Shown here: positions 1-1,272 of the stretch, one piece after another
How the letters are laid out: each line of letters opens with the position of its first letter
Position numbering within the stretch: the stretch's first letter is position 1
From: Candidatus Magasanikiibacteriota bacterium
GTDB taxonomy: Bacteria > Patescibacteriota > Patescibacteriia > Magasanikbacterales > GWA2-37-8
Length of the DNA stretch: 43,901 bases
NCBI GenBank assembly: GCA_963840935.1
Contig: CAWJAS010000001.1
Location: 1-43,901 of the forward strand
Direction: 5' to 3'
Notes under the pieces: generated by a model
The model's input: only the letters and a program-made list of their open reading frames with translations
Told to the model about the DNA's origin: nothing
Databases searched by the model: none
Position numbers and translations under genes: made by a program

Positions 1-296
1 TTACCCTTATAAAAACATTTGTATGGTTTAGGCTGTTCTCTCTTCGCTCGCCGCTACTAAGGGAATCTCTTCGATTTCTTTCCTCCGGTTACTGAGATGT
101 TTCACTTCACCGGGTTGTCTTTACGCACCTATGTATTCAGTACGCAATATCTCGATTAAATCGAGATGGGTTCCCCCATTGGGAGATTCCGGGTCACGGG
201 TTGCTTGGGACCTCTCCGGAGCTTATCGCACCCTGCAACGTCCTTCTTCGTCTTTTAGTGTCAAGGCATCCACCGTATGCTCTTAATGAAATTGCA
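1..296 (-). rRNA. rrl: 23S rRNA, 5' portion (runs off window start)
   Basis: Reverse complement reads ...TAAGAGCATACGGTGGATGCCTTG...GAAGTGAAACATCTCAGTA...AGTAGCGGCGAGCGAA, conserved 23S domain I motifs; 5' end approximate, by analogy with E. coli. Confidence 0.95.
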
Positions 297-465
297 CACA
301 ACGAAAACACCAAACAGTGCTTTGGTTATGTTTCTACCCAGCAATTTGTTCCGACTAACTCGAAACAAATCTGCTTTACTTTGTTGAGCTATTGAGTAAG
401 TTGTCAACGTACTATCCGTTTTCAACCTCATTGCTCGTGCCAATAAATTGGCCTGAGCGTGAGAT

Positions 466-491
466 AAAAAAAGAGCCGCCACAAGCGACTC
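466..491 (-). terminator. Intrinsic terminator inside the 23S rRNA leader
   Basis: Minus strand GAGTCGC-TTGTG-GCGGCTC followed by T7. Confidence 0.7.
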
Positions 492-666
492 ATTTTCTAT
501 GAGTTTAAACCGCTTGGATGCTATGAGTAAGATTTAAATTGTTTGATAATGTTAAACATCATCTGTCCCTTAAAGGGTCTTACCCAGAGGTCCAAGTCGG
601 ATACGATTTGTATCCACTAAATTATTGGACATGGTCCGCCTTGGGCGGAGATTAATCGTAAGCAAA

Positions 667-695
667 ATAATAACAAAAAAATAAAAACCTGTCAA
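667..695 (-). promoter_or_regulatory. Sigma70-type promoter for the 23S leader
   Basis: TTGACA (695-690), 17 bp spacer, TATTAT (672-667). Confidence 0.8.
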
Positions 696-759
696 GAGCC
701 GGTTATGTGGATAGGGTGTGGATATTCAGGGCTCTTAAAGCCTTAAAACAGCTTTTTTA

Positions 760-1026
760 TTATAAAACAACGATAATTTCACCGTTTTTGACAATAATAT
801 CATCAGGAGAAAAACGGCCATGTAAATAACCGATTACGATGTTTTTAATAACCCCTTTCCCAATACCGGTTATTATTTTTGCGCCAGATAATTTTTTATC
901 GACGCATTGACACAAAAATTGATCAACTTTCGCTTCAATTTCATCGAGCCGACATAAATGCAAATCAATAGATTGCAAATTATTATCTATTTCAATTGCA
1001 AATTTTTTTGCTTCTAAGATGTCCAT
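760..1026 (-). CDS. Hypothetical protein, 88 aa
   Basis: ATG-started ORF filling the gap between the tRNA element and the rRNA promoter; no recognised motif. Confidence 0.55.
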   Translation of the reverse strand: MDILEAKKFAIEIDNNLQSIDLHLCRLDEIEAKVDQFLCQCVDKKLSGAKIITGIGKGVIKNIVIGYLHGRFSPDDIIVKNGEIIVVL

Positions 1027-1041
1027 ATGCGTGCATGTTTT

Positions 1042-1188
1042 GTGCCGGGGAGAGGACTCGACCTCGGCTCAAATTTTCTTCCGAAAATTTGGCCTAGCCA
1101 CCGCCTCGCGGTTTGTCTCGCCCGCAAGCTCGCCAAACATCGCTCCGGCGTTCTCGTCCTCTCGTAACTAAAACCATTTAGTTACGAG
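1042..1188 (-). repeat. Structured element downstream of tRNA-Leu(TAG), ending in a 20-bp duplicate of the tRNA 3' end
   Basis: gtgccggggagaggactcga at 1042-1061 and 1188-1207; hairpin 1161-1188. Confidence 0.85.
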
Positions 1189-1272
1189 TGCCGGGGAGAG
1201 GACTCGAACCTCCAATCCCTTTCGGGAACATGCTCCTAAGGCATGCGTGTCTACCAATTTCACCACCCCGGC
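1189..1272 (-). tRNA. tRNA-Leu (TAG)
   Basis: GCCGGGG/CCCCGGC acceptor, CATGC-CTTAGGA-GCATG anticodon arm, long variable arm, GTTCGAG T-loop; CCA not encoded. Confidence 0.95.

Follow-up and report, generated by a model that had tools for sequence, protein, structure and literature searches.

The window analysed here is a 43,901-nt stretch of DNA from Candidatus Magasanikiibacteriota bacterium (assembly GCA_963840935.1, contig CAWJAS010000001.1, positions 1 to 43,901), which opens inside a 23S rRNA gene that runs on the minus strand. Between a near-consensus promoter and this gene lies a 195-nt structured RNA (window 466-662, minus strand), hereafter the leader, which ends in a strong intrinsic terminator at 491-466 (GAGUCGC 491-485, a 5-nt loop, GCGGCUC 479-473, then U7). 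The 23S rRNA starts at position 296, 170 nt beyond the terminator. The leader promoter matches 11 of the 12 consensus positions and has a TG upstream of its TATTAT; transcription probably starts near 657-660, as judged from the sequence. Of 81 distinct relatives, 69 have a TTGAC[AT]-N16-18-TAnnnT site that ends just 5' of the element, as opposed to 3 of 81 copies with such a site between the terminator and 23S, and the 23S gene is therefore reachable only through the terminator. Counts of promoter-like and terminator-like sites in 1-1500 were no higher than in shuffled sequences, so that the quality and conservation of the promoter and terminator are what matter. The original prediction, which described an attenuator in front of a stand-alone 23S gene, listed a promoter, a set of helices, an antiterminator and a terminator, all of which were found in place on the minus strand. 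It had also considered a separate start between 466 and 296, where no conserved promoter was found. A conserved TTGACAA that follows the terminator was tried as a -35 element and dropped, as TAnnnT occurs at the right spacing in 3 of 81 copies; it is read here as part of a boxA-like box.

In a DNA search of 100 genomes of the family, the leader was recovered at full extent from the five remaining genomes of the genus (75-82% identity), and pieces of it were found 300-500 nt before 23S in many other genera. Across 29 family loci the words CAYGUCC (29/29), GACCUCUG (28/29) and a CAAG(C/U)GG-like word (26/29) occur in constant order. The 24 of these 29 leaders with script-definable ends were aligned (A2) and served as the basis of a covariance model, R1, while a larger alignment of 85 rows, 81 of them distinct (A3), was used for helix counts. 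R1 identified exactly one site in the genome of the window (148.3 bits); of 151 genomes sampled from the order, 95 have one site each, with a weak second match in one genome. By family, matches were obtained in f1 (49/59), which includes the genome of the window, f5 (41/58), f4 (1/1), f7 (1/4) and f8 (2/7), and in 0/21 genomes from five other families; the search was run under strict filters, and genomes without a match are to be taken as 'not found' as opposed to 'absent'. Indeed, three model-negative genomes of the order, inspected by eye, carry a promoter, an GGACCUCUG core and a hairpin with U-tract terminator before 23S, and in one, G101, a boxA-like box is also clearly recognisable. Sampling across the class gave R1 matches in 12 of 151 genomes, of which three belong to family f1, the genome of the window among them. 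Three weak matches from other orders retain AAUGUUUA, UCCAAGCGGUU, CCGCUUG, GCGGUU and the U tract, and a 23S gene lies downstream in both that were testable. A core pattern was located on 83 sequence stretches, whose titles are mostly Candidatus Magasanikbacteria/Magasanikiibacteriota or 'Patescibacteria group', together with metagenome-assembled genomes auto-labelled as other taxa and a few probable chance matches. The leader is a conserved RNA element, present in single copy at a fixed place before 23S.

The RNA family is apparently undescribed. No Rfam family matches region 297-720 at gathering thresholds, and in E-value mode to E = 10 (250-1300) the best match in the region is STnc430 with 21.4 bits (gathering score 47) and E = 1.1, which is at chance level. 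The original prediction had suggested a comparison with known non-coding RNAs, and its view of the leader as something new is borne out to this extent. A described riboswitch class was likewise rejected, as Rfam yields no aptamer-family match. Our survey of the literature (full text, outside subscription journals and supplementary files) found neither an account of rRNA genes preceded by an attenuator or riboswitch nor any work on the rRNA leaders of Magasanikbacteria.

The combination of a strong promoter, a strong terminator, a high degree of structure (z -7.4), single-copy occurrence and conservation is also what would be expected of a free-standing small RNA (sRNA) of ~195 nt that acts in trans, with 23S transcribed by read-through from the same promoter. 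However, the element was never found away from 23S. Of 81 distinct copies, 78 are followed on their own strand by a 23S 5' motif within 520 nt, the terminator and 23S being a median of 186 nt apart, and at 20 of 20 loci from families f4, f5, f7 and f8 Rfam detects the beginning of 23S, again on that strand, 130-300 nt further on. As 23S also lacks a promoter of its own, a free-standing sRNA gene is improbable. When the leader core was compared with the 16S and 23S-5S precursors of five genomes for 9- and 10-mers that are identical or complementary, nothing consistent emerged and no conserved complementarity was seen; the test is crude and may miss short or imperfect duplexes. Neither an Rfam match nor a purpose for an alternative to the terminator (helix B:C, see below) is available to a plain sRNA gene.

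At the family level the leader can be described as a chain of five segments, Z (ACCAYGUCCA), A (CGCUUGGAC), B (AUCCAAGCGGUU), C (AACCGCUUG) and D (GCGGUUC), predicted to pair as Z:A, A:B, B:C and C:D, such that each inner segment would have two possible partners (Table 1). The minimum free energy (MFE) of 455-662 is -67.9 kcal/mol, as compared with -40.6 +/- 3.7 kcal/mol in 200 dinucleotide shuffles, none of which is as good (z -7.41). In the MFE structure of the window, segment B (UCCAAG-CGG, 518-510) is paired with segment A (CCG-A-CUUGGA, 600-591) and there is no GUCCA/UGGAC helix; the 5' end of the transcript (UACGAUU) is also paired with the 3' side of H2b (AAUCGUA), a pairing with partial, uncounted counterparts in family f1. 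Segment Z is nearly invariant among relatives, and its CCA (634-632) is able to pair with UGG at 586-584. The hairpins that flank it are far less constant: at the site of H1, relatives have other self-complementary sequences or no hairpin (by eye, uncounted), and H2b varies in length and sequence and is missing in some. Two hairpins are located inside H3, at 577-567 and 563-545, the second of which has a semi-conserved AUGUUUA(A)C in its loop region. We considered GAUGUUUAACAUUAUC in this second hairpin as a boxA, and dropped it since in relatives it corresponds to a hairpin with semi-conserved AUGUUUAC and the box shared with 16S lies past the terminator. Within H3, AAUGUUUA(C) (window 541-563) is retained in other orders of the class as well, despite the divergence of most of the sensor there, and a similar sequence, AAAUGUGAC, follows the boxA-like box in 16S leaders. 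The invariant GGACCUCU has a slight likeness, by eye, to the 3' tail of the 16S rRNA of the same genome (GGAUCACCUCCU), to which we give no weight.

Table 1 Features of the 23S leader region in the window, listed in the direction of transcription.
Feature	Position	Strand	Sequence, pairing or basis
Two TATCCACA boxes	706-713, 717-724	minus	TGTGGATA on the plus strand at 706 and 717; directly 5' of the -35 hexamer
Promoter, sigma-70-type	667-695	minus	TTGACA 695-690, 17-nt spacer, TG-n-TATTAT 675-667 (TATTAT 672-667)
H1, variable 5' hairpin	635-649	minus	UCCGCC/GGCGGA; 649-644 pairs with 640-635
Segment Z	625-635	minus	ACCAUGUCCAA; GUCCA 630-626 pairs with UGGAC 594-590 of segment A
H2b, variable hairpin	599-615	minus	GGAUAC 615-610/GUAUCC 604-599; enclosed by Z:A
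Segment A	590-600	minus	CCGACUUGGAC; alternative partners Z (read-through fold) or B (termination fold)
CUC linker and helix H3	524-589	minus	CUC 589-587 (invariant); UGGGUAAGA 586-578/UCUUACUCA 532-524; from pairing counts
Segment B	508-519	minus	AUCCAAGCGGUU; partners A (anti-antiterminator) or C (antiterminator)
Inner antiterminator hairpin and segment C	482-504	minus	ACUCAU 504-499/AUGAGU 493-488; C GAGUCGCUUG 491-482, pairs with B or D
Terminator loop, segment D and U tract	466-481	minus	D GCGGCUC 479-473; U7 472-466; from sequence
BoxA-like box	399-411	minus	ACGUUGACAACU (ACGUUGACAAC at 411-401); relatives carry (G)AACUUUGACAAUU there
Pre-23S leader, presumed leader strand of leader-trailer (processing) helix	297-420	minus	by analogy only
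23S rRNA gene, 5' part, cut by contig start	1-296	minus	RF02541, 201.2 bits, model 1-299

In the window, the antiterminator consists of CAAGCG (516-511) and CGCUUG (487-482) flanking the ACUCAU/AUGAGU hairpin. The original prediction drew attention to this arrangement of helix, 6-nt bulge and helix, and compared it with a T-box. The arrangement itself holds for the window, but the GUUUAA bulge is confined to the genus, and in most relatives the corresponding bases are paired as part of an uninterrupted B:C helix. Pairing of an uncharged tRNA with the antiterminator bulge, as in a T-box-like riboswitch, could account for a bulged antiterminator that overlaps a terminator; we nevertheless regard it as very improbable, and the analogy is abandoned. 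Neither a T-box sequence nor a UGGN bulge was seen, there is no specifier-loop stem, and the T-box family (RF00230) gives no Rfam match at gathering thresholds or up to E = 10 in 250-1300. A leader-peptide attenuator can be rejected because its start codon is not conserved: the sole AUG, within ACCAUGUCC at segment Z, is ACG (mostly) or AAG in most relatives.

Covariation was assessed for each of the competing helices. The helices Z:A, H3 and C:D are jointly 89.7% paired in A3, whereas registers slid along the alignment give 39-49%, and changes on both sides are seen in 16 of their 21 pairs, a value reached by 0 of 500 shuffles. For Z:A, 98% of pairs are standard in the 81 rows; the compensated variant AUCCA/UGGAU was counted, and GUCCC/GGGAC and GUGC/GCAC (the latter flanked by CCA/UGG) were identified by eye. 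H3 (CUGGGUAAG/CUUACUCAG) has changes on both sides in 8 of 9 pairs; it is fully different yet complementary in relative L103 and reads GGGUAAC/GUUACUC in family f5. The terminator helix C:D is 94.1% paired with double changes in 6 of 7 pairs, and a U tract is present in the aligned copies.

Two helices, B:C and A:B, lay outside the model. B:C is 85.1% paired (27-49% in slid registers), with double changes in 6 of 9 pairs and 16 double-change cells against 6.0 in shuffles (reached by 0 of 500). Its support is moderate, as most of its columns are invariant. A:B was counted in 76 of the 81 copies, five being omitted for gaps at anchor columns, and is 79.9% paired over 10 positions, as opposed to 22-52% in slid registers. 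Double-change cells number 35, compared with 20.5 in column shuffles (reached by 0 of 1000), and its compensated variants comprise CACUUGGA/UCCAAGUG, CUGCUUGGA/UUCAAGCAG, CUUGUUUGGA/UCCAAACAGG and UUAGUUUGGA/UCCAAGCUAG. A change in C that is matched in both B and D was found in three clades at three positions (alignment by eye), with B/C/D reading AAGUGG/CCACUU/GUGG in the L018 clade, AAGCA/UGCUU/GCAG in the L085/89/90/91 clade and AAACGG/CCGUUU/ACGG in L098. This fits the prediction that both pairings are under selection. Taken as sequence evidence, these counts demonstrate that Z:A, A:B, B:C and C:D pairing is kept by compensatory changes. The covariation check in relatives that the original prediction proposed thus finds the terminator, antiterminator, GUCCA/UGGAC and H3 helices conserved, and its statement that the overlapping terminator and antiterminator folds are mutually exclusive extends with compensatory changes across the order. 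The A:B helix was missed in that earlier reading, as were the boxA-like box and a long leader-trailer helix.

The segments can be combined into two exclusive structures. In fold R (Z:A + B:C) the 5' arm of the terminator would be sequestered, and polymerase would read on to the boxA-like box, the leader-trailer helix and 23S; in fold T (A:B stacked on H3, + C:D) transcription would terminate. Unconstrained MFE structures of 76 full-length copies contain A:B in 80% and C:D in 95%, and Z:A and B:C in none. Truncation after B leaves A:B in 78% of the 76 MFE structures; with truncation after C, the figures are 57% for A:B and 34% for B:C. With the helices enforced, fold T at full length is the stabler in 72 of 76 copies, with a median of 7.9 kcal/mol, which makes termination the equilibrium outcome. 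Before D exists the gap is 2.0 kcal/mol (interquartile range 0.1-4.2), and fold R is the stabler in 18 of 76. These models suggest that the terminator fold owes its status as thermodynamic ground state to A:B.

A possible course of events is as follows. Polymerase would start at the consensus promoter and reach the terminator (C:D + U7) ~195 nt later. Z:A would form first, and folds R and T would be nearly isoenergetic once C is complete. Given such near-equal folds, the outcome could be set by something that acts between the synthesis of B and that of D. As an rRNA operon needs heavy transcription, read-through must be favoured in growing cells. This could be achieved by kinetics, with a fast polymerase leaving B without time to displace Z, or by a factor that holds the Z:A/CUC/H3 module. 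We therefore propose, with a probability of roughly 0.6, that window 466-662 (minus strand) represents the sensor and terminator of a cis-acting attenuator that gates 23S synthesis (23S-5S in the relatives), with termination presumably conditional.

Several points weigh against this proposal. Because A3 had been fitted to the structures of Z:A, H3 and the terminator, the counts for these three helices are favoured. Z, A, B, C and D are mostly invariant, so the covariation rests on few, related and non-independent lineages. Two of five B:C measures are unremarkable, the number of double-change pairs being reached by 51 of 500 shuffles and that of further pair types by 422 of 500. Z:A is present in 0 of 76 full-length MFE structures, and hence fold R depends on kinetics or on a factor. 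No effector was found. It is also paradoxical for a sole, essential and highly expressed rRNA operon to be placed behind a strong terminator unless read-through is efficient, and efficient read-through would fit a non-regulatory role as well. Finally, the sole RNA run that holds the organism (word share 0.04; a run of unspecified kind has 0.24) is, like the latter, stored as contigs, which show neither ends nor absence; in window 1-900 there is one exact contig, at 94-306, and none on the leader, which permits no inference either way.

The last but one of these considerations, together with the missing effector, leads to the suggestion of a constitutive leader without a regulated switch, which aids factor loading, processing or 5' protection of pre-23S, the terminator being of fixed, low efficiency or always bypassed and the competing helices mere folding intermediates. 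Helices of rRNA leaders that aid assembly and quality control without switching are described in passages of PMC10250234, and 16S leaders of the same family have a similar 5' module and a long hairpin with no clear terminator. A role of this kind would not, however, account for a GC-rich hairpin with U tract that is kept with compensatory changes (94% of cells) even in divergent leaders. Nor would it explain why a change in C is accompanied by fitting changes in B as well as in D, as is expected only if both pairings are selected, or why the folds lie within ~2 kcal/mol at the decision point. We thus consider it quite unlikely, and favour the conditional attenuator. In respect of the original prediction, the architecture of terminator and antiterminator is upheld, and the likeness to a T-box is not.

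In the case of a conditional attenuator, the input might be of three kinds. A protein that holds the Z:A/CUC/H3 module, such as a Nus-type or ribosome-assembly factor or a ribosomal protein, is perhaps the most plausible; a module like Z:A/CUC/H3 is seen by eye in 16S leaders. Polymerase speed or pausing, and with it the level of NTP or (p)ppGpp, is a somewhat less favoured candidate. A small-molecule ligand seems unlikely. A broader scenario can be put forward with considerable doubt, in which a class-wide sensor RNA, diverged outside the order, would control large-subunit rRNA after initiation in response to a free ribosomal or assembly protein or to NTP/(p)ppGpp, and a shared factor on its 5' module of helix, asymmetric loop and helix (CCA-N-GUCC...GGAC-CUC-UGG), with a counterpart in the unlinked 16S leader, would keep 16S and 23S in step.

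Downstream of the terminator the leader resembles that of other rRNA genes. A box of the (G)AAC(U/C)UUGACAA type, which resembles a boxA, is located 129-160 nt before 16S in the genome of the window and in four relatives, and a strict version of the boxA-like pattern is found in 31 of 81 23S leaders. NusB is encoded in the genome, and a Rho RNA-binding domain was not found in it (rated 100% complete). Two RelA/SpoT homologues are also encoded there. In four relatives, the ~120-130 nt before 23S pair with ~110 nt after 23S (-65.6 to -88.9 kcal/mol), and by analogy a leader-trailer processing helix is presumed for the window, where 297-323 is conserved across the family. Such a helix is ordinary, so that the sensor and terminator constitute an addition 5' of an otherwise standard pre-23S leader. 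Given that the terminator lies upstream of the boxA-like box, a boxA-dependent complex cannot yet protect polymerase there.

The contig begins within the 23S gene, and a genome search with RF02541 did not find the remainder of 23S in the assembly, nor was 5S found, the 296-nt fragment being the only part matched by Rfam. As a consequence, 5S linkage and the leader-trailer helix were checked in relatives only. In four relatives 5S follows ~100 nt after 23S, and in four 16S is on the same contig but >140 kb away; in two model-negative genomes of the order, 16S and 23S are on separate contigs. This adjacency of 23S and 5S, with 16S distant, indicates that the controlled unit is a 23S-5S operon unlinked from 16S. 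The term 'stand-alone' used for 23S in the original prediction is hence appropriate in the relatives as far as 16S is concerned, but not with regard to 5S.

The genome of the window has a full 16S gene at 759033-760576 of contig C1. A second, fragmented 16S-like match is located on contig C2 (9184-10515; model 9-873, 875-902 and 929-1335). GC content is far higher in the final 300 nt of C1 and the initial 200 nt of C2 than elsewhere, and a chimeric join or contamination may be involved. The 16S leaders (C1:760577-761000 and loci L188-L191) contain, in conserved order, a promoter, UUCUAAGUCC...GGAUACUGG, an GGAAAGAGAAAAGAG/CUCUUUUUUCUUUC hairpin and a GAAC(C/U)UUGACAA box. By eye, the UUCUAAGUCC...GGAUACUGG helix/loop/helix resembles the CCA-N-GUCC...GGAC-CUC-UGG of the 23S leader, and GGAAAGAGAAAAGAG/CUCUUUUUUCUUUC forms a long purine/pyrimidine hairpin, with no clear terminator there.

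Of the 81 distinct relatives, 70 carry a TATCC[AC]CA box upstream of the promoter and within 130 nt of the element, in most cases ~50 nt from its start. This box is also present at the 16S promoters of the genome of the window (C1, ~760981) and of four relatives. It is DnaA-box-like. The word is found 66 times in the 910 kb of the genome, which is about the chance expectation, and it is therefore the fixed position at both rRNA promoters that is the notable feature. The TATCCACA boxes may act as an upstream promoter element or factor site, perhaps one common to rRNA promoters.

An 88-aa protein with an Smr domain (PF01713, E = 1.6e-10) is encoded at 760-1026 (minus strand), immediately 5' of the 23S promoter; translations from two or more other genera show, by eye, similar C-terminal peptides that end just before the promoter. 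Further upstream, the last 20 nt of a tRNA-Leu(UAG) gene (1188-1272, minus strand) are repeated exactly 146 nt downstream (1188-1207 and 1042-1061). This resembles the scar of an insertion in a tRNA gene, though only ~125 nt separate the copies.

Known control of rRNA synthesis acts mainly at the level of the promoter, and known attenuators control mRNAs. Unlinked, single-copy rRNA genes raise the question of how the output of 16S and 23S is matched, and the reduced Patescibacteria, whose ribosome biogenesis is treated in parts of PMC12641178, also raise that of how ribosome synthesis is regulated. If correct, ribosome production would have a new point of control, a conserved terminator switch 5' of the boxA-like box of the only 23S-5S operon, and this would be the first case of an rRNA operon governed by an attenuator or riboswitch-like element. 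A shared factor acting on the 16S and 23S leader modules would, in turn, balance two separately transcribed rRNAs. The leader further provides a well-defined new RNA family for databases and, at ~195 nt with defined competing helices, is amenable to in vitro study though the organisms are uncultivated. A full attenuator anatomy before the sole 23S-5S operon of a Patescibacteria order is well supported as an architecture, whereas its conditional action and signal are inferred.

The leader combines a conserved terminator between promoter and gene, an exclusive antiterminator and a competing anti-antiterminator, as is typical of attenuators. Alternative-hairpin attenuators and riboswitch expression platforms include Bacillus trp-TRAP, pyr-PyrR and the transcriptional riboswitches. 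In common with these, the leader has an intrinsic terminator 5' of the gene and a series of mutually exclusive helices whose strands can each choose between two partners; the stabler fold is predicted to be that of the terminator, with the decision preceding synthesis of the last strand. It differs from them in that the controlled gene is an rRNA operon as opposed to an mRNA, in the lack of a leader open reading frame and in a sensor that matches no described family. A T-box likewise has an antiterminator that overlaps the terminator, bulged as in the window; here the bulge is not conserved, Stem I is lacking and the gene downstream is not amino-acid-related. The processive antitermination RNAs (phage HK022 put and Bacillus EAR) act on polymerase, and at distant terminators. 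They share with the leader a structured RNA followed by a terminator that has to be passed, whereas here a strand of the terminator is sequestered by an alternative helix, and no Rfam match is obtained.

For the E. coli rrnB leader, pausing and attenuation are said to have been proposed long ago. To our knowledge, the Z/A/B/C/D chain is without counterpart in the E. coli rrn leader. In rrn antitermination, as outlined in sections of PMC10250234, a boxB-boxA-boxC signal acts with NusB/NusE/NusA/NusG. The similarities comprise an rRNA leader, a boxA-like box common to 16S and 23S leaders, and an encoded NusB; in contrast, a strong terminator here lies upstream of the boxA-like box, and as no Rho was found, the classical anti-Rho role does not apply. 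The passages on rRNA in a survey of premature terminators (PMC2965389) mention no rRNA leader attenuator.

The attenuation of ribosomal-protein genes in B. subtilis offers a further comparison, with the infC-rpmI-rplT leader and L20 (PMC1865079) and the rplJL leader and L10(L12)4 (PMC4538822). Such leaders control ribosomal-protein mRNAs and mimic rRNA binding sites, whereas here an rRNA gene lies downstream and the k-mer test found no sequence shared with 16S, 23S or 5S. They are alike in that a leader of ~200 nt ending in a terminator senses a ribosome component, and the B. subtilis systems provide a plausible model for a protein input to the 23S leader.

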